From Capsulimonadales bacterium (GTDB lineage Bacteria; Armatimonadota; Armatimonadia; Armatimonadales; Armatimonadaceae): DNA of 14,352 nt. Position 1 is the stretch's first letter, and the number at the start of each line of letters is the position of its first letter. The stretch lies in NCBI GenBank assembly GCA_033762295.1, contig JANRLW010000118.1:1-14352 (forward strand), given 5' to 3'. The notes beneath the pieces were generated by a model that was not told where the DNA came from, searched no databases, and saw only the letters and a program-made list of their open reading frames with translations. Made by a program: the position numbers and the translations under genes. Of this stretch, positions 1-14,352 are shown one piece after another.

Positions 1-378
1 GGTGGTGTAGGTGCGATCGACATCGACGCGATCCGCCGAGTTGGCGTACGGCGTCTCGCTCTCATCGATGTGCGCGCCGCCCCCGATCCCGGACACCTTG
101 TTATCGTTGTCGACGGCGTCGACCGCCGCCACCGCCGCGCCGCTCATCAGCGCGCCCGCCGCGCCGCCGATGATGGCTCCGGCTACCGCCCCTATCGGCC
201 CGGCCGCCGCCCCCGCCGCCAGACCGACCGCAGCGCCGCCCACACCGCCGAGGGTAGCGCCTTTCTGCGCGTCGTTGTCCGGATTATCGTCAATACCGTG
301 CTGAATCCCATCCACCACTCCTCCGTCTTCGGCCACCGGCCGGTTCTTCACCCTGTCATCACGCGTATCCATGTTCAT
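1..378 (-). CDS. Glycine-zipper domain membrane protein, possibly a general-stress protein; 3' end truncated by the window edge
   Basis: Manual translation from ATG 378 (alternative ATG 372) is open to position 1: MNMDTRDDRVKNRPVAEDGG...QKGATLGGVGGAAVGLAAGAAAGPIGAVAGAIIGGAAGALMSGAAVAAVDAVDND... with repeated GxxxG motifs. Strong SD (AGAGGAGA) lies just upstream. Absent from the ORF track because there is no stop in the window. Confidence 0.8.
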   Translation of the reverse strand, partial: MNMDTRDDRVKNRPVAEDGGVVDGIQHGIDDNPDNDAQKGATLGGVGGAAVGLAAGAAAGPIGAVAGAIIGGAAGALMSGAAVAAVDAVDNDNKVSGIGGGAHIDESETPYANSADRVDVDRTYTT

Positions 379-460
379 TCTCCTCTGTGCTTTCCGTTCG
401 CTACCATCGCTATTCATCCATCGATAGCATATTTGCGTCTGGTATTGAACGATGACAGCA

Positions 461-492
461 ACAAGACGGGGGGTCCCGTCGCCGGGTTTCGC
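461..492 (-). promoter_or_regulatory. Putative ECF-sigma-type promoter (GCGAAAC-N17-CGTCTTGT) for the glycine-zipper gene
   Basis: Matches the general ECF AAC-N16/17-CGT architecture. A second copy with identical spacing lies upstream of the PAS kinase at 1376-1407. Confidence 0.5.
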
Positions 493-520
493 GGATTTTT
501 CGGCGCGGGTCGCTACCGTC

Positions 521-570
521 GAAGGTCAGCGAAGGTCAGCGAAGGTTCGCTAAGGTCAGCGGAGGTCCGG
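521..570. repeat. Imperfect 10-bp tandem repeat, about 5 units (GAAGGTCAGC)
   Basis: gaaggtcagc gaaggtcagc gaaggttcgc taaggtcagc ggaggtccgg; overlaps the HAD stop codon at 556-558. Confidence 0.8.
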
Positions 571-1278
571 GTTTTCCGGCGAAGGCGGTTGGGCGGAGGC
601 GGCGGCATGGAGATGTCGGAGGAGATGTTCGACCGGGAAGGCGGCGAGATCATCGACCCGCAGATCGGCGTGAGAGAGATCGAGCAGGGCGGTGAGCGGG
701 TTGGGGAAGGCGAGGGCGAAGACGCGGGCGCGTTTGGCGGCATGCAGTCCGTTGGGGGAGTCCTCGACGGCCAGAGTGCGTGTCGGGGGTACTCCGAACG
801 TCTCGCAGGCGGAGAGGTAGAGATCGGGGTGCGGCTTGGCGAGGGGGACATCGCCGTAACAGCGGGTGAAGGCGAAGGCGTCGAGGATTCCGAGGCGTCG
901 CAGGTGTCCGTCGACCCAGTCGTGGTTGGAGGAGGAGACGACGGCGACGGGCAGGTTGCGTTGTTCGGCGTCGGCGAGGTATTCGAGGATGCCGGGGCGT
1001 ACGGGTGCGGCCTCGATCATTTCGAGAAACCGGGCGCGTCGCCGGGTATGAGCGACGGCATCGTCGAGGGGGTGTCCGACGAGGGTGCGGAGGTGGTTAT
1101 AGGGATCGAACTTGACATCGTTCGCGCCGCGTCCGATGCTGTCGGCCCAGAGCGCGAGCGGCAGTTCCTGTCCGTAGAAGGCGTAGACTTCCTCCCATGC
1201 CTGATACTCGAGGGTTTCGGTGTCGAGGATGGTGCCATCGAAATCGAGGAACAGGGCGTCAATCGGGCGGTGGTCCAT
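556..1278 (-). CDS. HAD-superfamily hydrolase/phosphatase, subfamily IA (beta-PGM/CbbY-like)
   Basis: 240 aa. Motif I FLDFDGTILDTE, motif II VVSSS, motif III KPHPDLY, motif IV VEDSPNG. Confidence 0.93.
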   Translation of the reverse strand: MDHRPIDALFLDFDGTILDTETLEYQAWEEVYAFYGQELPLALWADSIGRGANDVKFDPYNHLRTLVGHPLDDAVAHTRRRARFLEMIEAAPVRPGILEYLADAEQRNLPVAVVSSSNHDWVDGHLRRLGILDAFAFTRCYGDVPLAKPHPDLYLSACETFGVPPTRTLAVEDSPNGLHAAKRARVFALAFPNPLTALLDLSHADLRVDDLAAFPVEHLLRHLHAAASAQPPSPENPDLR

Positions 1279-1284
1279 GCTGTC

Positions 1285-1290
1285 AGTATA
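1285..1290 (-). promoter_or_regulatory. Putative -10 element (TATACT) 6 nt upstream of the HAD ATG, suggesting a leaderless transcript
   Basis: Minus strand reads ggTATACT-gacagc-ATG, with no SD between the hexamer and the start codon. Confidence 0.4.
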
Positions 1291-1375
1291 CCTTCGAACC
1301 TCTTTCGGTCGTGTTCGCCGGCATCGGTTCCAGGAAATTCGTTCTGTTGGGGAAGCGCCGTTGAGCCTACAAATT

Positions 1376-1407
1376 GCGAAACCCGGTCGGGGTTTTCCCC
1401 GTCCTGT
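1376..1407 (+). promoter_or_regulatory. Putative ECF-sigma-type promoter (GCGAAAC-N17-CGTCCTGT) for the PAS kinase
   Basis: 23 of 32 positions identical to the minus-strand copy at 461-492, with identity concentrated at the two ends; about 70 nt upstream of ATG 1480. Confidence 0.5.
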
Positions 1408-1479
1408 AGGGGGTTCACTGTGCGAACGGATTGGCCGACGCCCGCCCGGAGCGGCAGGCGAGGGGAGAAGTGTCTGCGG

Positions 1480-3006
1480 ATGGTCGAATCGGATGAATTC
1501 GGAGGCAAAGAGCGCACGGGCAACGGCGGAACGGCCGACGCATGGGCGGAACTGGAACGGGAGATTTCACGACGGCGACAGGCCGAGGCGGAACGGGACG
1601 CGGTGCGCGAACGCCTCGAAGCCGCTCTCACCGCCGGGGAAGTCGCAACCTGGGTCTGGGACGTCGCCGCCGATCATGTCCTCGCCGATCGGAACCTCCT
1701 CCGGCTTTTCGGTCTCCCCGATCCCGGCCCCGACGGTCTGCCGATCGCCGAATTTCTCCGGGTTATCCACGCCGAGGACCGGGAACGCGTCGGCGAGGCG
1801 ATCCGCGCAGCGCTCGCCAACCGACGCGAATACGAGGTCGAATACCGAATCCTTCCCCCCGACGGTCGACTGCGCTGGGTGATCGCTCGCGGCAAAGCCG
1901 AATACGACGAAACCGGCGCTCCCTCCCGCTTCCCCGGCGTCACCCTCGATATCACCGTCCACAAACAAACCGAGGAGGCGCTGCGCGAGAGCGAGCACAA
2001 GTTCCGGATGGTCGCCGATACCATGCCGCAACTGGTCTGGAGCACGCGCCCCGACGGCTTCCACGACTACTACAACGCCCGCTGGTTCGAATACACCGGC
2101 CTGACCTACGAGGATACCCGGGGCGAGAAGTGGAACGATGTCCTGCATCCGGAGGACCGAATCCGCGCCTGGGAGGTCTGGCGACGCTCGCTGGAAACCG
2201 GCGAACCCTACGAGATCGAGTACCGATTCCGGCGACACGACGGCGCGTTTCGCTGGTTCATCGGACGCGCCCTGCCGATGCGGGACGCCGACGGGCGCAT
2301 TCTGCGCTGGTTCGGCACCTGCACCGATGTCGATGAGCAAAAACGCACCGAGGAGACCCTCCGACGGCAACAGGAGGAGATCGCCGCGCTGAACGCTCGC
2401 CTGCGCCGCGCGATGGTGGAAACCCATCACCGCGTCAAAAACAACCTTCAGTTAATGGCCGCCCTGATCGAGATGCAGCGGAACGAGGACGAACCCGTCT
2501 CCCCGAAAGCCCTGGATCGACTGAGCGAAAACGTCCGCGCCCTCGGCGTCATCCATCAACTGCTCACCCAGGAGGCGAAGGAGGGAGACGCCCCCTCGCT
2601 CTCGGCCCGCGCGGTGATCGAACAACTGATCGCTCTGCTGGCCGGCACGGTGCGCGGACGCCGGATCGTCGCCGAACTCGATGACGTCCGACTTCCCGGC
2701 AAGTACGCGACCTCGCTGGCGCTGGTCGTCAACGAACTGCTGTCCAATGCGCTGAAATACGGCGCGGGCGATGTGCTGGTGCGGTTTCGGATTCGACAGA
2801 CCGATCCCGGTTCGGTCCTGCTGGTCGTCGAAGATGACGGTCCCGGTTTCGGTGAGGCGTTCGATCCGACCGGAGCGGCCAGCACCGGCCTGGAACTGAT
2901 CGAGAATATCGTCCGCTTCGACTTCCAGGGGGAGGCCGCGTACGAAAATCGGGAGGCCGGAGGCGGGAGAGTCCGCATTATTGTCCCGGTTCCGGAAACA
3001 AAGTGA
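1480..3006 (+). CDS. Cytoplasmic sensor histidine kinase, PAS-PAS-HisKA_2-HATPase
   Basis: Start reassigned to ATG 1480 (purine-rich GGGGAGAAG upstream), giving 508 aa. Two PAS/PAC units (IHAEDRERV...YEVEYRI...RWV; LHPEDR...YEIEYRF...FRWF), H-box ETHHRVKNNLQ, N-box NELLSNALKYG, G1 VEDDGPGF. No TM segment seen. Confidence 0.93.
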   Translation: MVESDEFGGKERTGNGGTADAWAELEREISRRRQAEAERDAVRERLEAALTAGEVATWVWDVAADHVLADRNLLRLFGLPDPGPDGLPIAEFLRVIHAEDRERVGEAIRAALANRREYEVEYRILPPDGRLRWVIARGKAEYDETGAPSRFPGVTLDITVHKQTEEALRESEHKFRMVADTMPQLVWSTRPDGFHDYYNARWFEYTGLTYEDTRGEKWNDVLHPEDRIRAWEVWRRSLETGEPYEIEYRFRRHDGAFRWFIGRALPMRDADGRILRWFGTCTDVDEQKRTEETLRRQQEEIAALNARLRRAMVETHHRVKNNLQLMAALIEMQRNEDEPVSPKALDRLSENVRALGVIHQLLTQEAKEGDAPSLSARAVIEQLIALLAGTVRGRRIVAELDDVRLPGKYATSLALVVNELLSNALKYGAGDVLVRFRIRQTDPGSVLLVVEDDGPGFGEAFDPTGAASTGLELIENIVRFDFQGEAAYENREAGGGRVRIIVPVPETK

Positions 3007-3042
3007 CGGTTTTGTCAGTTTTATGTTGGAGAGATCATTTCG

Positions 3043-3555
3043 GTGAAGAAAGCGCAAGAAATCATGCCGCCCTATGCCTTGACATCATATCCGTCGGAAA
3101 ACCTGCCTTCCGCGCCCTCCGTGGCCGGCGGCCCGTGGTCTCCGGAGCAGCGTTCGATCCTGCCCGGCAAGCGCGTGCTGATCGTGGAGGATGAGGGGCT
3201 GACCCAGGCACAGCTGCGCAAACTGATGACCAACGCCGGAATGAAGGTGGTCGGTTCGGCGGTGAACGGCGCACAGGGGCTGGAAATCGCGCTGCGGGAA
3301 CGACCCGACCTGGTTCTGATGGATATCAATATGCCGGTCATGGACGGCCTGGAAGCGACCCGCCGCCTGCTCGCGGAGATGTCGGTCTGCGTCGTGATGC
3401 TGACGGCGTTCTCCGACCAGGAAACCCGGAGCCGGGCATGGGCGTTCGGCGCGTCCGGCTATATCCTGAAGCCGGTGGATCGGACCATCCTGCTGCCCCA
3501 GCTGGAGTCTGCCTACCTCCAGTTCGAACATACCCGTCGCTCCCATCTTCAATAA
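3043..3555 (+). CDS. Single-domain response regulator (PdtaR/EutV-like receiver, no output domain)
   Basis: VLIVEDE acidic pocket, phospho-Asp in PDLVLMDINMP, MLTAFS, YILKP. Protein ends shortly after receiver helix 5. Start is GTG 3043 (GGAGA upstream) or ATG 3064. Confidence 0.9.
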   Translation: MKKAQEIMPPYALTSYPSENLPSAPSVAGGPWSPEQRSILPGKRVLIVEDEGLTQAQLRKLMTNAGMKVVGSAVNGAQGLEIALRERPDLVLMDINMPVMDGLEATRRLLAEMSVCVVMLTAFSDQETRSRAWAFGASGYILKPVDRTILLPQLESAYLQFEHTRRSHLQ

Positions 3556-3575
3556 CGGCAATAACGGCGACCGAT

Positions 3576-3607
3576 GCGAACGCGTGGCAGCGCCGCCGCG
3601 CGTTCGT
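3576..3607 (+). terminator. GC-rich stem-loop downstream of the response regulator (possible terminator or mRNA-stabilising hairpin)
   Basis: GCGAACGCGTGGC-agcgcc-GCCGCGCGTTCGT: 13-bp stem with 2 G-U pairs and a 6-nt loop; no adjacent U-tract. Confidence 0.35.
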
Positions 3608-3804
3608 CCCCGCCCGGCACACCGCCAGTAAAACCGCAAAAAGACGGTGTAAAAGCCGGTTTTTTCTCCTCTGTGTGTGTTAATCAACAAAACTTAAAGT
3701 AGACTATATTCTATTATAAAACGTTCGGACAGGGCGGAACAGCCGTAATTACGCACGGCTGTCTTTTCGGTCGCCTCCGTCCGCCCGCCGAAGCGACATT
3801 CCGT

Positions 3805-5532
3805 ATGGATACGAAACTGACAATCGGGTTTCTGACGGTGATGCTCGTGATCGGAGCGAACGCTTTCATCGCCGGGACGAATCTGGATACGGTCGCCCGT
3901 AACCGGCAGTGGGTGACGCATACCCAGGAGGTTCTGTGGACGATCGAGACCGTTCTCTCGCTCCTGAAGGACGCGGAGACGGGTCAGCGCGGCTTCCTGC
4001 TGACCGGACGACCGGAGTATTTGCTCCCCTACGAGCAGGCGCGGCAGGCCCTTCCCCCGAAACTCGGTCAACTGCGCGAACTGACCGCGGATAATCCCGA
4101 ACAACAGCGGCGTCTCAGGGAGATCGAGCGATTGACGACGGAACGACTGGCCGCGCTGCGCACCGCGCTGGACCTCCGGCGGACGCGGGGCGACGCGGCG
4201 GCCCGTCAATGGCTGCTGTCCGGACGGGGGCGAACGATCATGGTCCGTATTCGCGGCGAAGTTGAGGAGATGGAGAAGGCGGAACGGCTCCTCCTGCTGC
4301 GACGGGAGTGGGAGTCCGAAGTCAGCGAGCGACGCGCCCGCCTGACCCTGCTCGTTGCCTCGCTGGTCAGTCTGACCCTGTTGCTGGCGGTCTACCTGAT
4401 TCTCGCACGGACGGCGACGGAACGCCGGAGAGCCGCCGACGCGCTGAAGAGACGGGAGGAGTGGCTCTCGGCCACGCTGGCCGCCATCGGGGACGCCGTA
4501 CTGACGACCGATGAAAAAGGGAACGTTCTCTTCCTCAACGGGGTCGCCGAGACGCTGACCGGTTGGCTGCAGCACGAGGCGCAGGGAAAAAAGGCTTCCG
4601 AAGTGTTTCATATCGTCCATGAAACGACCGGCGCGCCCGTGCAAAGTCCCGTCGACCGGGCGATCGCGGAAGGGGTCACGGTCGGTCTGGCCAATCATAC
4701 CGTCCTGATCGCCCGCGACGGAACGCGGCGACCGATCGAGGACAGCGGCGCGCCGATCCGCGATATCCGGGGCAACCTCGCCGGGGTCGTGCTGGTGTTC
4801 CGCGATGTCAGCGAACGACGACGGGCCGAAATCGAACGGGAGCGTCAGGTCGCCGAGGTGGAACAGCTGAACGCCCGGCTCCGGCGGGCGATGACCGAGA
4901 CGCACCACCGGGTCAAAAACAACCTGCAGATCATGTCCGCCCTGCTCGACCTCCGGCAGACCAGCGGTCAGGAGACCGTGCCGATGTCGGAACTGGCCGA
5001 GGTCAGCCGCCATCTCCAGGCGCTCGGCGTGATCCACGATATTCTTACCCAGGAATCGAAGACCGAGAGCGGCCTGCGGCGTATTTCGGTGAAATCCGTC
5101 CTGGAGCGCCTGATGCCGCTTCTGGAGTCGATTCCGGACGGTCGGCCCGTCCGCGCGGAAATCGCCGAAGTCCTGCTGCCGAGCAAGCAGGCCACGTCCG
5201 TCGCCCTGATCACCAACGAACTGGTGTCCAACGGTATCAAGCATGGCCGGGGAACGGTTGAATTATCGTTGCGGGCCGAGGGCGACACGGCGACGCTGAC
5301 CGTTTGCGACGACGGGCCGGGGTTTCCGCCGGATTTCGATCCGGAAACCGCCGCGCATACCGGCATCGAACTGCTGACCAGCATCGTCGGCTACGACCTT
5401 GGCGGCACCATCTCCTTTGAGAACGCCGGGGGAGGCGGGGCGAAAGTCGTCGTCACGTTCCCCGTCCCCGAAGAGAGCGGTCCCCGCCCGGATTCTGGAG
5501 AACCGCTGTCAAGTTCCCGCTTTATCGCCTGA
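3805..5532 (+). CDS. Membrane sensor histidine kinase, CHASE3-PAS-HisKA_2-HATPase
   Basis: 575 aa. TM1 (LTIGFLTVMLVIGANAFIA), CHASE3 signature LLKDAETGQRGFLLTG..EYLLPY, TM2 (LTLLVASLVSLTLLLAVYLIL), PAS (IGDAVLTTDEKG...IEDSGAPIRD..GVVLVFRDVSERR), H-box ETHHRVKNNLQ, NELVSNGIKHG, DDGPGF. In-frame stop at 3700 limits any upstream extension. Confidence 0.95.
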   Translation: MDTKLTIGFLTVMLVIGANAFIAGTNLDTVARNRQWVTHTQEVLWTIETVLSLLKDAETGQRGFLLTGRPEYLLPYEQARQALPPKLGQLRELTADNPEQQRRLREIERLTTERLAALRTALDLRRTRGDAAARQWLLSGRGRTIMVRIRGEVEEMEKAERLLLLRREWESEVSERRARLTLLVASLVSLTLLLAVYLILARTATERRRAADALKRREEWLSATLAAIGDAVLTTDEKGNVLFLNGVAETLTGWLQHEAQGKKASEVFHIVHETTGAPVQSPVDRAIAEGVTVGLANHTVLIARDGTRRPIEDSGAPIRDIRGNLAGVVLVFRDVSERRRAEIERERQVAEVEQLNARLRRAMTETHHRVKNNLQIMSALLDLRQTSGQETVPMSELAEVSRHLQALGVIHDILTQESKTESGLRRISVKSVLERLMPLLESIPDGRPVRAEIAEVLLPSKQATSVALITNELVSNGIKHGRGTVELSLRAEGDTATLTVCDDGPGFPPDFDPETAAHTGIELLTSIVGYDLGGTISFENAGGGGAKVVVTFPVPEESGPRPDSGEPLSSSRFIA

Positions 5533-6462
5533 ACGGAGCGTCAGGGCGACGCCGAACAGCAGGACGATGGCCGCCGCTCCCTGACCGGCGGTCACCGGTT
5601 CGGCCAGAAGGAAAAAGGCGAGAATCCCGGCGACGACGGGCTCGAGAAGCATGGCGACCCCGACGACTCCCACCTTGAAGTGCAGCAGGCACCAGTTCAG
5701 CGAGGTATGCCCGATCAATTGGGGAAGGAGCGCCATTCCGAGCACGGCAAGCCATGCCGGCGGATTGACCGGCCGTATTTGCGCCGGTTCCATGAGAAGC
5801 GGAATCGCCGCCCACAACGTCGCCGCCGCAGCCGTGTAGGTGATCGCCACCGTGCGCTCGGTCCCATGTCGTTTTTGCACTCCGTCCACCAGAAGGAAGT
5901 ACGCCGCCAGGGCGACCGCGCCGACAAGTGCGAGCGCATCGCCGACAGGCATGGTCGCATCGCCGATCCCTTCGCTCGCCCCCGCCATCGCCGCCGGACG
6001 CGGTCGCCCGAACAGCGTTACGCCCCAGGCGCCGACACAGGCCAATCCGAGACCGCCGATGAAACCGGGGCCGGGACGTTGCTTCAGCCAGAGCGCGCCG
6101 GCCAGTCCGGACCAGATCGGCGAGGTGGTGACGAGCAGGGTGGAACGCGCCACGGGAATGAAGGTGAGCGAGGCGAACCAGGCGAGGAAATGGACGGCCA
6201 GACCGATTCCGGCAAGGGTCAGGCGGGCGTACTCGGCGGCGGTCATCGGTTCCGCTCCGTCCGTATCGCTCGGTTTCGCCTGTTTGCGGAAGACCGAACG
6301 CGCGCCGCGCGCGGCCAGCACGATCAGCGCGGCAATCAGGAGACGCCACCCGGCCAGCGACAGCGGCGACATGCCGTTGTCCAGAGCGACCCGCGCCATC
6401 AGCGCGGAGGAGCCGATCGCCACCTGCGCCCCGAGCAGGACGATCACGGGAAGAAATCGCAC
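5509..6462 (-). CDS. EamA/DMT-family (drug/metabolite) transporter
   Basis: Start reassigned to GTG 6462 with SD-like GGAAGGGA 5 nt upstream, giving 317 aa. About 10 hydrophobic segments in two EamA repeats (HFLAWFASL...TLLVTTSPIW; PQLIGHTSLNWCL...LLEPVVAGILA). 3' end overlaps the CHASE3 kinase convergently by 24 bp. Confidence 0.9.
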   Translation of the reverse strand: MRFLPVIVLLGAQVAIGSSALMARVALDNGMSPLSLAGWRLLIAALIVLAARGARSVFRKQAKPSDTDGAEPMTAAEYARLTLAGIGLAVHFLAWFASLTFIPVARSTLLVTTSPIWSGLAGALWLKQRPGPGFIGGLGLACVGAWGVTLFGRPRPAAMAGASEGIGDATMPVGDALALVGAVALAAYFLLVDGVQKRHGTERTVAITYTAAAATLWAAIPLLMEPAQIRPVNPPAWLAVLGMALLPQLIGHTSLNWCLLHFKVGVVGVAMLLEPVVAGILAFFLLAEPVTAGQGAAAIVLLFGVALTLRSGDKAGT

Positions 6463-6567
6463 ACCGGTCCCTTCCGCCCGGACCGTTCCGTTTCCTGCCC
6501 GGCTCCTCTTTCGCCGAAATGATCGGAACGGCAGGGAAACTTGCCCCGGTCGTGGAACACTGTCGGC

Positions 6568-8046
6568 ATGAGTTCCACCGACGAAAAGAAAGATAAGCCG
6601 ACGACCGAGGAGACGAAAGCCGACTCCAAAGACTGGTTCAAGGAGGAGGCGCCGGTCGCCACCCGTCACGAAATCACGATCGGCGGCAAAACCCTCGCCT
6701 ACACCGCCCATGCCGGCAAGCTTCCGATCCGGAACGAGAAGGGTGAGACGGAGGCCGCGATCTTCTTCATGGCCTACACCCTCGACACCGAAGGCCCGCG
6801 TCAGGATCGCCCCCTGATGTTCGCGTTCAACGGTGGCCCCGGTTCCTCGTCCGTCTGGCTGCACTTCGGCGCGATCGGCCCCAAACGGGCCGCGCTGAAC
6901 CCGGACGGCACCCTGCCGCCACCGCCCTACCGTCCGGTCGACAACGAGTTCACCTGGCTGGAGAACGCCGATCTGGTCTTTATCGATCCCGTCGGCACCG
7001 GCTACAGCCGCGCCAAAGACGAGGAAACGGCTAAAAAATTCTACGGAATCGAACCCGATATCAAGTGCCTGGCCGAGTTCATCCGTCTTTACCTGACCCG
7101 CTACGAACGCTGGGGATCGCCGCTTTTCCTGGCGGGGGAGAGTTACGGCACGACGCGCGGCGCGGGATTGGCCGGTCATCTGATCAACGAAGGGATCGCT
7201 TTCACCGGCATTCTTCTGGTCTCGACCGTACTGAACTTCCAGACGCTGGTCTTCTCGACCGGAAACGATCTGCCTTATTCGCTGTTCCTGCCATCGTTCG
7301 CGGCGACCGCCTGGTATCACCGACGTCTGCCCGAAGACCTTCAATCGCGCCCGCTTCCGGAGGTGCTGAAAGAGGTCGAAGCGTTCGCCGAAGGGGAGTA
7401 TGTCCTGGCCCTGATGCGCGGCGACCGGTTGAGCGAGAGCGATCGGGATCACCTGGCCGCGAAACTGGCCCGCTATACCGGCCTTTCCGAACGCTATGTC
7501 CGGTTGTCCCAGTTCCGCCTGCGGATCCATGCCTTCTGCAAGGAGTTGCTGCGCGACGACGGTCTGATCGTCGGGCGGTTCGACAGCCGGATCACCGGGC
7601 GGGGCGGATCGGGAACCGGCGAAAACATGGAGTACGACCCCTCCGGCGCGGTCATTCGTCCTCCCTATACGGCGGCCTTCAACGATTACATTCGCCGTGA
7701 ACTCGACTACCGGGAGGACCTGCCCTATACGATTCTGGGCGGTCTTTACTCCCAGTGGGACTGGGGCAAGGGCAATACGTTCGCCGATACCGGCGCGGCG
7801 CTGCGCTCGGCCATCGAGAAGAACCCGCATCTCCGGGTCTTCGTCGCGTCCGGCTACTACGATCTGGCGACTCCCTACGCCGCCGCCGATTACACGTTCG
7901 CCCACCTGGGCATCGACCCGTCGCTGCGCGGCAACATCGAGGTGGCCTACTACGAGGCCGGACACATGATGTACATCGAGAGCGGCTCGATGGTGAAGCT
8001 GAAGCGGGATGTGGACGACTTCCTGCGTCGAACCGCCGGAGGATGA
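6568..8046 (+). CDS. Peptidase S10 family serine carboxypeptidase, apparently without a signal peptide
   Basis: 492 aa from ATG 6568. FNGGPGSSS, FIDPVGTGYS, catalytic Ser motif GESYG, GYYDLATP (Asp), YEAGHMMY (His). Confidence 0.93.
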   Translation: MSSTDEKKDKPTTEETKADSKDWFKEEAPVATRHEITIGGKTLAYTAHAGKLPIRNEKGETEAAIFFMAYTLDTEGPRQDRPLMFAFNGGPGSSSVWLHFGAIGPKRAALNPDGTLPPPPYRPVDNEFTWLENADLVFIDPVGTGYSRAKDEETAKKFYGIEPDIKCLAEFIRLYLTRYERWGSPLFLAGESYGTTRGAGLAGHLINEGIAFTGILLVSTVLNFQTLVFSTGNDLPYSLFLPSFAATAWYHRRLPEDLQSRPLPEVLKEVEAFAEGEYVLALMRGDRLSESDRDHLAAKLARYTGLSERYVRLSQFRLRIHAFCKELLRDDGLIVGRFDSRITGRGGSGTGENMEYDPSGAVIRPPYTAAFNDYIRRELDYREDLPYTILGGLYSQWDWGKGNTFADTGAALRSAIEKNPHLRVFVASGYYDLATPYAAADYTFAHLGIDPSLRGNIEVAYYEAGHMMYIESGSMVKLKRDVDDFLRRTAGG

Positions 8047-8924
8047 CGCAGGGAACCATCGCCGCCGCCCATTCGTTAATGGGGAGGATGACCCGACTCG
8101 AATCCTCCCTGCCGATATTTACGAACGAGGTCCTCGCTGCCGAAACGGAGCCGGGACGCATGGACGAACTGCACCTGTATCACGGAGCCCGGTGCAACCG
8201 TTCCTGCGCGTTCTGCTGTGTGAACGGTTCTCCGGACGGCGGACATACCCCGTTCGGCGAGCCGGTCCTGCGGGCGGCGGTCGATCTCGTTGCCCGGCGC
8301 GGCAGCCTGAAAATCTACGGCGGGGAACCGACGCTCGACCCGGACAACCTCGCCTGGTCGATCCGGAGGCTCCGGGAAATCGGATTCGAGGGAGCGATCA
8401 CGATCTTTTCCAACGGTCTTCGTCCCCGGCCCCTGATCGACCTGCTGCGCGGCGATGACCGGCTCTTCGTCGTGCTCAATCATGCGATCTTTTTCGGACG
8501 GGGGGAGGAGCCGCTGTCGCCGTCGGTCCGGGCACTTCTTCTCGCCGAACATGCCCGTCGTCCCGGTCGTCTCTTCGTCTCGCACGATTTCACGGTCGCG
8601 GTCGGCCGCGAGTCGACCGACCGGCAGCGAGACGGCGACCGCTATCTGCCCTGCTTTCGATGCTGGCCGACGCTGACGACGACCGGTTTCTTTCACGCCT
8701 GTCCGTTCGCGGTCGAACATGCCGGTCCGCATTTCGCGCTGGGAACGCTCGATACGCCGCCCGGAGTGGTCCGGGAGCGGTTCGAAACCTTCCTGCGCTG
8801 GACGGAGGAACGGCTGAACCCGGAGGCGAAGCGGCTGGGAATCGGCGCGTGCGCCCTCTGCACCGGACCCGCCCCGCCCGCCATCCCCCGGCACGAGCCT
8901 AGAGTCTTGTTGCCCATGGTCTGA
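8043..8924 (+). CDS. Radical SAM protein of unassigned subfamily with a C-terminal Cys-rich (Twitch/SPASM-like) region
   Basis: ATG 8043 overlaps the peptidase stop (ATGA); alternative ATGs at 8079 and 8088. 293 aa. CxxxCxxC motif CNRSCAFC(C) at 8193-8219, YGGEP, FSNG; C-terminal CFRC...ACPF...CALC. Confidence 0.88.
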   Translation: MTQGTIAAAHSLMGRMTRLESSLPIFTNEVLAAETEPGRMDELHLYHGARCNRSCAFCCVNGSPDGGHTPFGEPVLRAAVDLVARRGSLKIYGGEPTLDPDNLAWSIRRLREIGFEGAITIFSNGLRPRPLIDLLRGDDRLFVVLNHAIFFGRGEEPLSPSVRALLLAEHARRPGRLFVSHDFTVAVGRESTDRQRDGDRYLPCFRCWPTLTTTGFFHACPFAVEHAGPHFALGTLDTPPGVVRERFETFLRWTEERLNPEAKRLGIGACALCTGPAPPAIPRHEPRVLLPMV

Positions 8925-8931
8925 ACGCCCC

Positions 8932-9660
8932 ATGCCCGTCCCCGAAACGCCCGAAACGCCCTGGCTGTCGATCATCGTGCCGACGCTGAACGAGGAGAAG
9001 GCGCTGCCGGAAACGCTCGCCCGGATCGCCCGGTGTGCGCCGTCCGCCGAGATCGTGCTGGTCGATGGCGGCAGTACGGACGGCACCCGCGCCGTGTACG
9101 AACGTTTCGTCGCGCGGTCGGCGCAGCCGGTCCGATGGATCGACAGCGCGCGGGGTCGGGGCCGCCAGATGAACGCCGGCGCGGCGGCAGGTCGGGGCGA
9201 GGTCCTGCTCTTTCTGCATGCCGATACCCTGCTTCCCGACGACAGCGAACGGCATCTCCGCCGGGCGTTGAGGGACCCGCGTATCCGAGGCGGAAACTTC
9301 CGCCTCGCGTTCACCCCCCGGTCCGCCCTGTCGGACTTCTACGCCCGGTGCTACAACCTGCGCAGTCGCTGGCACGTCTTTTACGGGGATTCGGGGCTGT
9401 TCGTCCGCCGGGAAACGTTTGTCGCTCTCGGCGGGTATCGGGCGGACCGGCTGATGGAGGACGTGGAGTTCATCGGTCGGCTACGTCGCCACGGTGGCCT
9501 GACCTTTCTCGGTCAGGCTACCGTGGTCACCTCGGCGCGCCGCTTCCACGGTACGCGCCGGGGGTTGACGATGCTGTTTGTCTGGCTCCTGCTGCACGCC
9601 CTGATGGCGCTGGGCGTTTCGCAGGAGACGCTGGAACGGCTCTACCCGCCCCGGCGGTAA
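8932..9660 (+). CDS. GT2 glycosyltransferase, TIGR04283-like (rSAM/selenodomain-associated, arsenosugar-biosynthesis-annotated family)
   Basis: 242 aa. LSIIVPTLNEE, VDGGSTDGT, GRGRQMNAGA, LLFLHADT, YGDSGLFVRR..F..LGGY, LMEDVEF, VVTSARR. Starts 7 nt after the rSAM stop. Confidence 0.9.
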   Translation: MPVPETPETPWLSIIVPTLNEEKALPETLARIARCAPSAEIVLVDGGSTDGTRAVYERFVARSAQPVRWIDSARGRGRQMNAGAAAGRGEVLLFLHADTLLPDDSERHLRRALRDPRIRGGNFRLAFTPRSALSDFYARCYNLRSRWHVFYGDSGLFVRRETFVALGGYRADRLMEDVEFIGRLRRHGGLTFLGQATVVTSARRFHGTRRGLTMLFVWLLLHALMALGVSQETLERLYPPRR

Positions 9661-9670
9661 CGGGAGACGA

Positions 9671-12274
9671 TCAGTTTTTCTCGCGTTTCTCGGGCGTTTC
9701 GCGCTTCTCCCCGGCTTCGTTCTCTTCGTTCTCTTCCTCCTCATCCTCCTCGATGGCCACATTCGGGAGGCCCGTGGCGGAGAAGGACGGGCGGCGCACC
9801 GGCACCGGGTACGGGGCATTTTCCCCCTTGATGCTGTGCCACAGGATGCGGTTCAGATCGTCTTCATCGGCCCGGGTCAGTCGGTCCGGCGCGGAGAAAT
9901 CGAACTTCATCGAGCGGGCGGCGCCGAGGGCGCGGGGCGCGTTTTTGGCGTTCAGATCGATCGTCGCCGGGCGCGCGCTAAAGGGAGTCAGGTCGGCCTT
10001 GTTGCGGAAGGAGGCGTACATCGGGGTCGCCCCGGCATCGTACTCGCTCATCGGCGGCAGTCCCAGGATCAGTTCCATGGTTCGCAACATCGAGCAGGTC
10101 GTGTAGTGGGTGCTGTCCACCTTGCTTTGCCGGGTGTAGGGGGAGATGACCAGTCCCATCGTGCGGTGCGCGTCCACATGGTCCGGGCCGTTCTGGGCAT
10201 CGTCCTCGATGACGAAGATCGCCATCTCCTTCCAGAATCGGGATTTCGAGCAGGCTTCGACGATTTTTCCGAGGCCGAGGTCATTGGACGCGACCGCCGC
10301 CTGGGGGGTCGCCGCGCCCGGTCGCGTGCCGGAGGTATGGTCCTCGGACAGCGCCATCACCATGAAGCCGGGCATATCCCCGGTCTTCTCCCACTCCTGA
10401 ACGTCCTTAATGAAGATATCGGCGGCCAGGTAATCGCGCTCGCCCCGGCGGCGGGCGGCGGACCACTCCTCGTTGCGCTTCTTATCGACGTGATAGTAGT
10501 AGGTGCGGTACGGAATCCCCTTGCGTTCGCACAGGTCCCAGATGCGCCCGCCCGGCGTCTCGGCCAGCGGATCGCCGAAGTCGCCGTAACGGATCGGCGG
10601 CGCACCCTTGCCTCCGTACTGTGCGGGCCACGTCCGCTGCATCAGGTCCGGAACGTACGCGCCGTTCGACCAGTGATGGCCGTCCACGGACACCTCGCCG
10701 TTGCAGTAGAGGTTGTCCAGCAGGATGTACTCCCGGGCCAGCGCATGATGGTTGGGGGTCACATTCTCCCCGAACAGGGTCAGATTCGGATCGCCGTTGC
10801 CGATTCGCTTGCCTTTCGCGTCGGTCATATCGCCGAAGACCTGATCGTAGGTGCGGTTCTCCTTGATGATGTAGAGAATGTGCTTGATCGGGGACGGGTC
10901 TCCGAGGCGGGACGGAATCGGGTTGCTACCGGCCCGGGGCGCCTTGCTCGGGCGCTCCGTCAGGGCGTCGGCGTAGGGCGTATTGGCATAGACCTGTTTG
11001 GTGTAGGTGGCCAGTTGCTTTCCGTCCGGAACGGTCAGGGTGGTCAGCGACCCCTTCATCAGGGCGGTGATATAGGGATAGCTGCGCGGCGCGACCGGAT
11101 CGATCGGCTTTCCTTCGGTCAGGTTGTTCGGCCCGAACCCGAAGCCTTTGCCACAGCCGATCAGGAGTTGCCGACCGTCGGGCAGAGCGGTCACGACGCT
11201 CGGATAGGCGGCGGTCGGGATGAACCCTTTCACGATGGCATGACCGACGGCGGCAATATCGACGACCGCGACGGCGTTATTGTCGGAGCAGGCGACGTAC
11301 AGCGACTTCTCATCCGGCGAGAAGGCGAGCGCGTTCGGGGTCGCTCCGGCGGGCGCTTTGGGCGTCAGTTTGAGGGAGATCTTCTCGGCCGTGCGGCCGG
11401 CGACCGTATCGATCGCGTAGACGGCGTCGGCGTTACCGCAGGCGACGAACAGGCGGGAACCGTCCCCGGTGAGCAGCAGTGAGTTGGGATGCGGACCGAC
11501 CTCCATGGTCGCCCGCGTCTCCAGGGTGGCGACATCGAGCGCCGCCACCGTCCCGCGTCCGAGCAGGCCGACATAGAGGGTCCGGCCATCGCGGGCGAGG
11601 CACAGGGTTCCGGGGCGGTCGGCGTTATCGAAAGCCCGTTTCGCCTTGAGAGTTCCGTCCGCCGCATTCAGGGCGTAGAGCGTATCATTGGAAAGGTTCG
11701 TGACGTACAGCGTGCTACGGTCGGCGGAAAGCGCGAGTCCCCAGAGGAAGGCGGGCGCGGCGAACCGCTCCTTATCGGTGCTTCCCGGAGCGGCGGTATC
11801 CCGGCTGCCCAGAATGGCGAGTTCGGGCACATCGATCGGCGTCTGCGCCTCGGCCTCTCCGTTCGCCACTTTGAAGACGAAGATCCGTCCGCTGTTCCCC
11901 CCGGCGACGTAGAGCGTGCCGCCATCGGCGGACCAGACGATGCCGCAGCTCTGCGCACGGGTCAACGGAAGCGTCTGCCGCACCTTGCCGTTCGCCGGAT
12001 CGACGATCAGAAGAGCATGTTCCGACGCGCCGCCGGTCGTGACGGCCAGCGTTTTCCGGTCGGGGGACAGCGCCGCCATCTGCGGAATGTCTCCGATGGT
12101 CTGATGCTGCCCGACCGGGGTCAGGTACCAGCCGTTGTACAGCTTGATCTTCGGCGGAACGGCCTCCGGGCTTTTGACGAACGGACCGGGCGCCTGCTGG
12201 GCGGCCAGGGGCAGTAAAAAAAGGACGGAGAAGGTCGTCAGTTGAACGACCGGACGGCGGGGTAGTGCGGGCAC
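9671..12274 (-). CDS. Secreted bifunctional YVTN/YncE beta-propeller + phosphoesterase (alkaline phosphatase superfamily, AcpA/phospholipase C-like)
   Basis: Preferred start GTG 12274 (AGGAAG 7 nt upstream) gives a signal-peptide-like N-terminus MPALPRRPVVQLTTFSVLFLLPLAA; ATG 12301 and 12373 are in-frame alternatives. Propeller repeats (VGPHPNSLLLTGDGSRLFVAC; TPNALAFSPDEKSLYVAC), then IKHILYIIKENRTYDQVFGD, EVSVDGH, EDDAQNGPDHVDAHR, and an acidic C-terminal tail. Confidence 0.92.
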   Translation of the reverse strand: MPALPRRPVVQLTTFSVLFLLPLAAQQAPGPFVKSPEAVPPKIKLYNGWYLTPVGQHQTIGDIPQMAALSPDRKTLAVTTGGASEHALLIVDPANGKVRQTLPLTRAQSCGIVWSADGGTLYVAGGNSGRIFVFKVANGEAEAQTPIDVPELAILGSRDTAAPGSTDKERFAAPAFLWGLALSADRSTLYVTNLSNDTLYALNAADGTLKAKRAFDNADRPGTLCLARDGRTLYVGLLGRGTVAALDVATLETRATMEVGPHPNSLLLTGDGSRLFVACGNADAVYAIDTVAGRTAEKISLKLTPKAPAGATPNALAFSPDEKSLYVACSDNNAVAVVDIAAVGHAIVKGFIPTAAYPSVVTALPDGRQLLIGCGKGFGFGPNNLTEGKPIDPVAPRSYPYITALMKGSLTTLTVPDGKQLATYTKQVYANTPYADALTERPSKAPRAGSNPIPSRLGDPSPIKHILYIIKENRTYDQVFGDMTDAKGKRIGNGDPNLTLFGENVTPNHHALAREYILLDNLYCNGEVSVDGHHWSNGAYVPDLMQRTWPAQYGGKGAPPIRYGDFGDPLAETPGGRIWDLCERKGIPYRTYYYHVDKKRNEEWSAARRRGERDYLAADIFIKDVQEWEKTGDMPGFMVMALSEDHTSGTRPGAATPQAAVASNDLGLGKIVEACSKSRFWKEMAIFVIEDDAQNGPDHVDAHRTMGLVISPYTRQSKVDSTHYTTCSMLRTMELILGLPPMSEYDAGATPMYASFRNKADLTPFSARPATIDLNAKNAPRALGAARSMKFDFSAPDRLTRADEDDLNRILWHSIKGENAPYPVPVRRPSFSATGLPNVAIEEDEEEENEENEAGEKRETPEKREKN

Positions 12275-12301
12275 GGTTTTACTTCCTGTCTCGGACGGCA
12301 T

Positions 12302-12327
12302 ATGTCGGGAACGAATGTCGGGAACGA
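12302..12327. repeat. 13-bp tandem duplication ATGTCGGGAACGA x2, with a degenerate third unit near 12331-12342
   Basis: Read directly from the sequence, in the leader of the phosphoesterase gene. Confidence 0.75.
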
Positions 12328-12468
12328 ATAATGGCGGGACGAAGGCAGGTCGTCTCCGTCCCACCGAGATCATTCGCTAAGATGACACGGTCTCCGGGGA
12401 AACTACGGTAGACTGCTCTTCCCGGCCCGTTGAGCGGACAGCAACGCTGCTCTTGTTGTCCCGCGTAA

Positions 12469-12682: not shown

Positions 12683-14352
12683 ATGCTGCCCGCCGTCCTG
12701 GCCCTGCGTTACGGGTCCTTCGACGCCCTGCCGGAACCACTCCCACTGGTCGCCGGCCCGCTGTCCTGCCTTTACGAGGACGGCGAACTCCGGAGCGTCC
12801 GCTGCGGCGAGGAGCTTCTCCTGCTGCGCGTCTACGCCGCCGTCCGCGACCGCGACTGGGGCACCGTTCCGGCCCAGGTCGCCGTGCGCGAGCAGACGGT
12901 CTTCAACGAAGGGTTCCGTATCGTCTTTGACACGTCCTACGTCCGGACCGGCGAAAACGAAACCATCCGTTTCGTCAGCGCCGGACGGATCGAGGGCAAG
13001 GCCGACGGTTCCATCGTGTTCGAGTTCGAGGGCGAGGCTAAAACCACGTTCCAGCGCAACCGGATCGGCTTCTGCCTGCTCCACCCGGCGGAGTGGGCGG
13101 GTCACCCGGTGATCGCGGAATTTACCGGCGGGAGAACGGAGACCGCCCATTTCCCCGGCCTCGTCGATCCGGCGCAGCCGGTCTTTCCGTTTACGCGGCT
13201 GCGCGCCCTGCTCCTGACCACCGGGACCGGAGAGCGTATCGAGGTCCGGATGGAGGGCGACGCGTTTGAGATGGAGGATCAGCGCAACTGGACCGACGCC
13301 TCCTTCAAAACCTTCTGTACGCCGCTCTCGCTGCCGTACCCGATCGAGATACCGGTCGGAACCCGTATCGTCCAGCGGATCACCGTCCGCACGCTTCCGG
13401 GCGTCCATACCCCGCGGCCCGTCGGGCGGACCACCCCTTCCCGTCGGACTCCCTCGCTGGAACTGCATCCGGGAGAGTCCGCCCGACTTCCGGAGATCGG
13501 GTTCGGGCATCATCGCCCGCATCCCCGGCGCGACCTGACCCGGCCGGAGGAGGACCACCTGCAGGCGCTTGCCCCCGCTCATCTCCGGGTCGATGTTCGC
13601 TTCACCGGGGACTGGCGAAAGAACCTGGCCTATGTCGCGCGTTATTCGCGTCGATGGAAGACGCCGCTGGCGGTGGCGATCTATCTGCCTGCGGACGCCG
13701 ATCGGCAGGCAAAAGAGTTGAAAGCGATGGGCTGGGAGATCCGGCAGTCCGAGGCGGAGATCGGTCGCTGGCAAATCTATCCGGAACAGGAGGTGTACAC
13801 CGGGCAGAACTGGCCGACGATCCCGAAAGAGACGCTACGCGCCATCGCGCCCGACGCGCCGATCCTGACCGGTTCCGACACGGATTTCCTCTTCTTCAAC
13901 CGGTTCGAGGGCACGCTCCCGGAAGTGAACGGGGTCGTCTTCCAGATCAATCCGCAGGTCCACGCGTTCGACAACGCCTCGCTGATGGAGACGCCACTCG
14001 CCTATGAAGCCGTGGTGGAGACCGCGCGGTTCCGGGCGCGCAACCTGCCGGTCCATATCAGTCCGCTGACGTTGAAGCCTCGCTACAACCCGTACGCCCG
14101 CAGCGAGAAACCGCCGTCGATCCCGCCCGACCCGCGTCAGAAATCGCTGTTCGCGGCCGCCTGGACGGTGTGCGCTCTCTCGGCCCTGACGGCGGCGGGC
14201 GTCCGAAGCGTCACGCTGTTCGATCTGATCGGGGATACCGGACTCGCGCAGGGAGACTGGGTCTTCCCCGCCTGGATTCCGCTCGGATGGCTCGCCTCGG
14301 TCGCGACCGGGGAGGCGTTCCCCCTGTCCGCGGACGATCCGCGCCGCGCGGC
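12683..14352 (+). CDS. apnL: D-apionate lactonase (ApnL)-like protein; 3' end truncated by the window edge
   Basis: Manual translation from ATG 12683 (GAGGA upstream, in-frame TGA at 12644) is open to the window end, over 550 codons. Motifs AGPL...GELR...VRDRDWGT, RNRIGFCLLHP, FEMEDQRNWTDASFKT...PLSLPYP, NPQVHAFDNASLME, DPRQKSLFAAAW, which I recall as ApnL-family blocks. The CDS is well supported; the exact substrate is not. Confidence 0.7.
   Translation, partial: MLPAVLALRYGSFDALPEPLPLVAGPLSCLYEDGELRSVRCGEELLLLRVYAAVRDRDWGTVPAQVAVREQTVFNEGFRIVFDTSYVRTGENETIRFVSAGRIEGKADGSIVFEFEGEAKTTFQRNRIGFCLLHPAEWAGHPVIAEFTGGRTETAHFPGLVDPAQPVFPFTRLRALLLTTGTGERIEVRMEGDAFEMEDQRNWTDASFKTFCTPLSLPYPIEIPVGTRIVQRITVRTLPGVHTPRPVGRTTPSRRTPSLELHPGESARLPEIGFGHHRPHPRRDLTRPEEDHLQALAPAHLRVDVRFTGDWRKNLAYVARYSRRWKTPLAVAIYLPADADRQAKELKAMGWEIRQSEAEIGRWQIYPEQEVYTGQNWPTIPKETLRAIAPDAPILTGSDTDFLFFNRFEGTLPEVNGVVFQINPQVHAFDNASLMETPLAYEAVVETARFRARNLPVHISPLTLKPRYNPYARSEKPPSIPPDPRQKSLFAAAWTVCALSALTAAGVRSVTLFDLIGDTGLAQGDWVFPAWIPLGWLASVATGEAFPLSADDPRRA

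Follow-up and report, generated by a model that had tools for sequence, protein, structure and literature searches.

In arsenosugar synthesis, the radical S-adenosylmethionine (SAM) enzyme ArsS adds the 5′-deoxyadenosyl group of SAM to dimethylarsenite and converts DMAs(III) into DDMAA, and this first radical step is reported to be the only one demonstrated biochemically (PMC13598754; bioRxiv 10.1101/2024.02.01.577332). In genomes of the same order as the bacterium studied here (loci L108 and L109), the canonical ArsS cluster contains a TIGR04169 peroxidase-like protein, ArsS (446.6 bits), a TIGR04282-type DUF2064 protein, a TIGR04283 glycosyltransferase (GT), and a MerA-like flavoprotein. Here, we analyzed a 14,352-nucleotide stretch of Capsulimonadales bacterium contig JANRLW010000118.1 (hereafter the window; G+C content approximately 65%), in which a radical SAM enzyme unrelated to ArsS (hereafter rSAM) is followed by a family-2 GT of the TIGR04283 family. 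An earlier annotation made from the sequence alone (hereafter the original prediction) had joined these two genes with an upstream S10-family serine carboxypeptidase homolog and a divergent EamA transporter gene in one candidate biosynthetic system, and each of the four was confirmed where it had been placed.

We put at about 0.68 the probability that rSAM (positions 8043 or 8088 to 8924) and the GT (positions 8932–9660) form a functional two-gene unit, a pared-down version of a conserved module for small-molecule chemistry in which an unrelated radical enzyme takes the place of ArsS, and that the S10 and EamA genes are unrelated neighbors. The full module consists of a twitch-type rSAM, usually fused to or beside a DUF547 domain, a DUF2064/TIGR04282 protein, a TIGR04283 GT, and a MerA-like flavoprotein disulfide reductase. 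In most genomes, these helper proteins go with ArsS instead.

Characterization of the radical SAM enzyme

The rSAM gene (P0001; positions 8043–8924, plus strand) encodes a protein of 293 amino acid residues that matches PF04055 with 32.4 bits, just over the gathering threshold of 29.5. The CX3CX2C motif, formed by C51, C55, and C58, is invariant in 60 aligned sequences. The alignments, one of 30 and one of 60 sequences, show four further invariant cysteines (C207, C220, C270, and C273), as well as C204, which is conserved in at least 90% of the sequences. The spacing C207-x12-C220-x49-C270-x2-C273 resembles what we take to be the spacing of the auxiliary-cluster ligands of BtrN.

To none of the curated NCBIfam models did rSAM come near the cut-off (the top match was 26.9 bits against 380). 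The ArsS model TIGR04167, whose cut-off is 300 bits, gave 17.8 bits (E = 0.0016), and the match was confined to residues 39–112; no match to MftC (TIGR03962) was detected at E ≤ 0.01. These results agree with the original prediction that rSAM is neither ArsS nor MftC. PF12345 (DUF3641), the cysteine-rich C-terminal domain of ArsS, likewise gave no match to rSAM at E ≤ 0.01, whereas the ArsS proteins of L108 and L109 reach 180–186 bits for this domain. When a profile of 60 rSAM members was compared with ArsS using hhalign, 75 columns of the generic core were aligned and no more. On the TIGR04167 score and the hhalign result, the idea that rSAM is a divergent ArsS was rejected.

The AlphaFold model of rSAM (pLDDT 88.5, pTM 0.86) was used for a Foldseek search, in which the top Protein Data Bank (PDB) matches were the twitch/SPASM enzymes EpeE/YydG, BtrN, CteB, SpeY, SkfB, and anSME; SuiB was also matched. 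These matches had E values of 3e-7 to 5e-5, TM-scores of 0.4 to 0.6, and identities of 13 to 19%. In a PDB profile search, BtrN was aligned across residues 30–263, which is nearly the whole length of rSAM. The Pfam SPASM model did not match rSAM; the AlphaFold model points to a twitch-like fold, with a twitch-like C-terminal part predicted at the place that DUF3641 occupies in ArsS. The dehydrogenases BtrN and SpeY and the peptide epimerase EpeE/YydG are thus similar to rSAM in size (approximately 250–320 residues) and predicted fold. However, they differ from it in that the identity is only 13 to 19% with no Pfam SPASM match, and in that the partners of rSAM are GT2, DUF2064, and DUF547 proteins, with no aminoglycoside or peptide context.

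A word-indexed search returned 59 relatives of rSAM. At E ≤ 1e-30, the family comprised 31 representative clusters among 1.84 billion, and below this level the matches dropped to generic radical SAM proteins. The rSAM family is therefore small and sharply bounded, and it is without a curated model. The long proteins that ranked next after the family among the 1.84 billion representatives were tandem proteins with multiple radical SAM domains, and none of the 17 checked was an ArsM fusion. A search for longer proteins carrying a domain of the rSAM family yielded two DUF547 fusions. An rSAM-ArsM fusion was considered as a Rosetta stone for the function of the family and was rejected, because the fused-form searches gave DUF547 fusions only. 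As a lead only, a structure search of the Atlas found a cluster of 837-residue proteins with a methyltransferase domain, mostly from Acidobacteriota, that aligns to the whole rSAM model with a TM-score of 0.65; these proteins may be rSAM-ArsM fusions, in which case their radical domain would resemble rSAM in structure.

Glycosyltransferase and gene neighborhoods of rSAM relatives

The GT gene (P0002; positions 8932–9660, plus strand) encodes 242 residues and matches TIGR04283 over model positions 1–221 of 221 with 209.7 bits (cut-off, 182; 209.5 bits in the genome-level search); the PF00535 score is 71.9 bits. It is the only TIGR04283 copy above the cut-off in the window genome. Its ATG at 8932 lies 7 nt past the rSAM stop codon (8922–8924), as originally read. 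In the GT tree, the window GT falls in a clade of five rows (support 100/97) whose other members come from three ArsS genomes and from L005, a Chthonomonadaceae locus, indicating that orthologous GTs work with either radical enzyme. The starred branches of this tree force at least two partner switches.

TIGR04283 GTs also occur in the window's own family with no adjoining rSAM. In L106 (G079; positions 7909–8655), the gene is flanked by PHP, MFS, and HTH genes, and in L107 (G139; positions 8099–8791), it follows a gene for an uncharacterized 655-residue protein and lies beside PIG-L and GT1 genes. The GT family therefore also occurs outside rSAM cassettes.

A scan of one genome per species gave 188 matches to rSAM, and neighborhoods were taken from the best 80 of these 188. 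Automatic selection of ORFs in the high-GC loci sometimes took shadow frames, and all ORFs were scanned where it mattered. In 62 of the 80 loci, the relative is a protein of approximately 510 residues with an N-terminal DUF547 domain fused to rSAM; 17 relatives stand alone, and one ends at a contig edge. The DUF547-fused forms make up a single clade in the rSAM tree (100/99), and the window protein belongs to a clade of five Chthonomonadaceae sequences (100/100). A metagenome scan for the closest relatives found two loci, both identical to the organism of L005. The DUF547 half of the fusions (L045, positions 6284–7810, and 58 other fused ORFs) is highly conserved and has three nearly invariant cysteines in the motifs HFAINC-x4-CP and WNC; we speculate that these cysteines may bind substrate or take part in thiol redox chemistry.

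Searches with the window proteins (tblastn) detected the GT in 13–14 of the 80 rSAM loci, which represent several phyla. DUF2064, the Pfam counterpart of TIGR04282, was encoded within 7 kb in 14 of the 80 loci and always together with the GT. According to the record titles, the loci with both genes come from Chthonomonadaceae, Pyrinomonadaceae/Acidobacteriota, Binataceae, and metagenome-assembled genomes (MAGs) labeled "Deltaproteobacteria" or "delta proteobacterium," one of which the tree tool assigned to Myxococcota. The gene orders differ among them. In the Chthonomonadaceae locus L005, the GT and DUF2064 genes are divergent from a flavoprotein-rSAM pair; in the Pyrinomonadaceae loci L056 and L072, genes for the flavoprotein, DUF2064, and the GT lie a few kilobases from rSAM; and in ten loci labeled Binataceae, "delta proteobacterium," or "Deltaproteobacteria," DUF2064-GT is divergent from DUF547-rSAM. 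DUF2064 and GT2 are fused in one protein in L036 and L015, again divergent from DUF547-rSAM. In G061, which belongs to the same phylum as the window genome but to another family, the genes run DUF547, GT2, DUF2064, and rSAM.

A MerA-like flavoprotein gene adjoins rSAM in L005, L056, L072, and L080 and adjoins ArsS in L108 and L109. The flavoproteins beside the two radical enzymes match the same NCBIfam subfamily model with 456–489 bits, below its cut-off of 620. DUF2064 and this flavoprotein are therefore found around the new rSAM (L005 and L056, and DUF2064 in G061) as they are around ArsS. Differences from the ArsS cassette, besides the radical enzyme itself, are that the new rSAM is usually fused to DUF547, that no TIGR04169-type gene lies beside the window pair, and that the window genome is without DUF2064 and ArsM, as described below.

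Two other kinds of neighbor were observed. A rhodanese gene lies approximately 3.7 kb upstream of rSAM in 24 loci, 23 of which have DUF547-fused forms, mostly from one Thermoanaerobaculia lineage. Loci in which rSAM precedes ABC-importer genes (importer-type loci) are L056 (positions 3623–11886), L072, L012, L017, L022, L026, L028, L041, L068, L069, and L080, and by record title they come from Acidobacteriota, a Heliomicrobium MAG, and Microcoleus. A binding protein of the YnjB-like type (NF008633; L056 scores 424.5 bits) is encoded in eight of these 11 loci, and a gene for a TonB-dependent outer-membrane protein lies upstream in L056 and L072.

Co-occurrence of the module genes among genomes

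We then counted the two radical enzymes and the GT in 201 genomes of the phylum; these counts are from related genomes and are not corrected for kinship. The new rSAM was found in two genomes (the window genome and G061), and TIGR04283 over the cut-off and ArsS were found in 34 genomes each. The 34 GT-positive genomes comprise 28 with ArsS, two with the new rSAM, and four with neither; none has both. For 12 rSAM-positive genomes, namely, the two from the phylum sample and ten reached through the loci, the genes were cross-tabulated. TIGR04283 exceeded the cut-off in nine of the 12 (seven of the ten reached through the loci), and one more, the "Rokubacteria" genome G209, has a match that is split into adjoining segments scoring 128 and 123 bits (C14:297784–298447), which may reflect a frameshift or an assembly error. 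ArsS was present in only one of the 12, a cyanobacterium that carries two GT copies. ArsS and the new rSAM are thus almost mutually exclusive. In a set of five genomes without rSAM-GT adjacency, all five encode TIGR04283 over the cut-off elsewhere, compared with 34 of 201 genomes in the phylum sample, and TIGR04282 was present in four of the five rSAM-positive genomes tested. The link between rSAM and the GT that had been predicted from the window was therefore supported, by adjacency in the window, in G061, and in 13–14 of the 80 loci and by co-occurrence in nine of 12 genomes, but the proposed membership of S10 and EamA was not (0/80 loci).

ArsM exceeded its cut-off in G061, G201, and G202, all rSAM-positive Armatimonadota, and in four of the five ArsS genomes tested, and it was not found in the rSAM-positive, chromosome-level Thermoanaerobaculia genomes G203 and G204. 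In the window genome (G000), which is 94.5% complete, the top ArsM match was 59 bits against a cut-off of 263 and the top ArsS match was 30.3 bits against 300; TIGR04282 gave no match, and tblastn with four DUF2064 proteins also gave none. The absence of ArsM and TIGR04282 partners, noted originally for the window, thus extends, like that of ArsS, to the whole of this assembly. DUF547 was not found in the window genome by tblastn with three fused proteins, which matched by the rSAM half only; a search with the Pfam model was blank, but its control was also silent, so that this second search is uninformative. The best homolog of the module flavoprotein in the window genome (on C43) was considered as a partner and rejected, since its neighbors are unrelated.

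Possible function of the pair and alternative explanations

The shared helper genes, the near-exclusivity with ArsS, and the partner switches in the GT tree lead us to read the pattern as a non-homologous replacement of ArsS within one pathway. In such a pathway, the CX3CX2C cluster would cleave SAM to a 5′-deoxyadenosyl radical, and a second cluster fully ligated by C207, C220, C270, and C273, of the BtrN type, would handle a second electron. The enzyme would adenosylate a small substrate as ArsS does, or oxidize or epimerize one, and the GT would then make or use the glycosidic bond of the product. In the window genome, the rSAM-GT pair would have landed downstream of a lineage-wide peptidase gene.

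Several observations weigh against this reading. Neither the GT nor DUF2064 was found within 7 kb in 66 of the 80 rSAM loci. Close kinship links the source genomes of many of these loci, and the set covers 80 of the 188 matches, leaving 108 outside it. Of the stand-alone rSAM loci, 11 of 17 have ABC-importer permease genes directly downstream, which may point to another role. The rSAM-positive MAGs G206 and G207 gave no TIGR04283 match at E ≤ 1e-25, and the four GT-positive genomes with neither radical enzyme (G079, G083, G158, and G176) show that the GT is not strictly dependent on one. DUF2064 is absent from the window genome and from G201, and the two-gene remnant may be nonfunctional or do something different. 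Finally, the S10 and rSAM genes are tightly spaced, by an overlap or at most 41 nt, and a lineage-specific use of the peptidase is possible, in one genome only.

The first alternative is that the pair belongs to the ordinary arsenosugar pathway, with the new rSAM adenosylating dimethylarsenite to DDMAA and the GT processing an arsenic-containing riboside. The new rSAM holds the place of ArsS among the same helpers, ArsS itself is reported to turn DMAs(III) into DDMAA (PMC13598754), and three rSAM-positive Armatimonadota encode ArsM. The DUF547 cysteines (CxxxxCP and WNC) could also bind a soft metalloid. Against these points, ArsM is missing from the window genome and from G203 and G204, rSAM has no homology to ArsS past the core and no DUF3641, and the fused-form searches gave DUF547 fusions without any ArsM fusion. 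A fully ligated auxiliary cluster, moreover, is typical of dehydrogenases and not of adenosyl-transferring enzymes. We consequently regard this alternative as unlikely. Because the window genome appears to be without ArsM, dimethylarsenite made in the cell is an unlikely substrate there; an arsenic substrate is possible for the rSAM family but is not supported for the window genome.

It is improbable, in our judgment, that the rSAM-GT adjacency is incidental and that the rSAM family serves another process, such as one acting on the substrate of the ABC importer that it precedes in Acidobacteriota, Heliomicrobium, and Microcoleus. The downstream permeases described above, eight of them with a YnjB-like binding protein, would fit such a role, as would the 66 loci without a nearby GT and the genomes G206 and G207. 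However, in the importer-type loci L056, L072, and L080, DUF2064, the GT, and the flavoprotein are likewise encoded within 7 kb. In addition, the five nonadjacent genomes all encode TIGR04283 elsewhere, against about one in six genomes of the phylum sample (34/201), and the adjacency recurs across phyla in differing gene orders and in fused forms.

Returning to the replacement of ArsS by an unrelated enzyme, we tentatively suggest that the DUF547-linked twitch rSAM may be a second, non-homologous radical-step enzyme of the TIGR04282/TIGR04283 pathway that thrives without ArsM, as in the window genome and the two chromosome-level Thermoanaerobaculia, and whose native substrate is not methylated arsenic but perhaps another soft-element compound or a sugar. 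Hints of such a substrate come from three kinds of protein encoded near members of the rSAM family: the flavoprotein disulfide reductase, the rhodanese, and the importer of the thiosulfate (YnjB-like) type. If this is true, the label "arsenosugar" on the helper enzymes is too narrow. Full-text literature searches found no paper linking DUF547 to a radical SAM enzyme. Among the papers mentioning TIGR04282, TIGR04283, DUF2064, TIGR04167, or DUF3641, none is, by its title or abstract, about what the two transferases do, and among the DUF547 papers listed, none is about bacteria by its title or abstract. The slotting of an unrelated rSAM into the helper set of ArsS is a natural experiment on the true role of the helpers, and the fusion gives DUF547, a widespread uncharacterized domain, a concrete metabolic context. 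The new rSAM is a compact enzyme of approximately 280 residues for in vitro work, and it is the rSAM family, more than the window locus, that merits enzymology.

Carboxypeptidase and transporter genes

The S10 gene (P0004; positions 6568–8046, plus strand) encodes 492 residues and matches PF00450 with 62.1 bits against a cut-off of 21.9, but only the N-terminal part (residues 59–208) is aligned. The sequences GESYG, YYD, and AGHM occur in the translation and may correspond to the catalytic Ser, Asp, and His. The EamA/DMT transporter gene (P0008; positions 5509–6462, minus strand) encodes approximately 317 residues from a GTG start, with two PF00892 stretches that correspond to two repeats (110 bits). 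As originally described, it is divergent from S10 across a 105-nt gap, which the sequence places at 6463–6567. This region is the sole place for a promoter serving S10, rSAM, and the GT. A consensus scan found no sigma-70-like site in 5300–9900, where 0.6 would be expected by chance, and this negative is hence uninformative; the promoter and terminator scan gave nothing exceeding chance.

The overlap of the S10 stop codon with the rSAM start codon was seen as predicted, in the ATGA of ggaggATGAcg at 8043–8046, but the rSAM start itself is ambiguous and the true one may be downstream. Other in-frame ATG codons lie at 8079 and 8088, the closest rSAM homolog (P0009, 67% identical) starts at the equivalent of 8088, and residues 1–20 of the rSAM model have a pLDDT of approximately 50. 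From these sequence features, the rSAM start may fall 32–41 nt past the S10 stop codon, without overlap. The spacing fits a single transcript with either start. A look-up of sequencing runs for positions 6400–9800 returned none, and none with RNA.

Homologs of the S10 protein (55–65% identity) were present in nine of ten genomes of the same family and in none of ten sister-family genomes. Among the nine same-family S10 genomes, only the window genome has rSAM, and in the phylum sample rSAM was found in none of seven same-family genomes. At the S10 loci of five relatives, of which 12–18 kb were examined, no rSAM, GT, EamA, or other window gene lies beside S10 in any of the five. The S10 gene is therefore lineage-wide and without rSAM or the GT in relatives, and the rSAM-GT pair sits behind it in the window genome only. 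Tblastn with the window proteins found S10 and EamA in none of the 80 rSAM loci. The recurrence of the peptidase beside rSAM homologs in other genera, which the original prediction had set in advance as a check on itself, was thus not observed, and the EamA protein as the transporter of the system found no support either, being absent from the rSAM loci and from the five S10 loci of relatives. Considered as parts of a system, S10 and EamA were both rejected on these grounds. We conclude that S10 is a bystander, although it is probably co-transcribed with rSAM, and EamA is likewise judged to be a bystander.

The original prediction had also likened the locus to mycofactocin maturation. Similarities are that rSAM, a peptidase, and a GT2 stand side by side in the window and that TIGR04283 was originally named "glyco_like_mftF." Nevertheless, rSAM does not match MftC, the GT reaches only 44.5 bits with the MftF model (TIGR03965; cut-off, 280), and no MftA or MftB was found beside the window rSAM in a search that covered the locus only, the rest of the genome not being searched. 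The S10 peptidase does not recur with rSAM, and MftE belongs to a peptidase family other than S10. The gaps beside rSAM leave no space for a precursor gene in the window, in L005 (29 nt), or in L056 (approximately 100 and 40 nt). The 293-residue rSAM has no RRE-like N-terminal domain, its core motif beginning at residue 51, and the conserved partners of the family (DUF2064, the MerA-like flavoprotein, and DUF547) are small-molecule enzymes. The peptide logic of the comparison was accordingly abandoned. That S10, rSAM, the GT, and EamA constitute one new system that matures and exports a peptide-derived or glycosylated cofactor is thus very improbable, despite the close S10-rSAM spacing, the 7 nt between rSAM and the GT, the structural matches to the peptide modifiers EpeE/YydG, CteB, SkfB, and SuiB, and the weak MftF match. 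This outcome prevents the window from being misannotated as a peptide or cofactor cluster around a housekeeping peptidase.

Other genes in the window

Downstream of the GT, a gene on the minus strand (positions 9671–12373) encodes a 900-residue protein with a hydrophobic N-terminal stretch, β-propeller repeats, a phosphoesterase domain (PF04185), and a highly acidic tail; it converges on the GT, and 10 nt separate the two stop codons. Upstream of EamA, positions 1–5532 of the plus strand hold signaling genes: a PAS/HWE-type histidine kinase gene that ends at 3006, a response regulator gene at 3043–3555, and a CHASE3-PAS-HisKA_2 kinase gene at 3805–5532, whose stop codon overlaps the end of the EamA gene. 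An open-ended ORF at 12683–14350 (plus strand) encodes a distant relative of the D-apionate lactonase ApnL, scoring 245 bits where the cut-off is 750.

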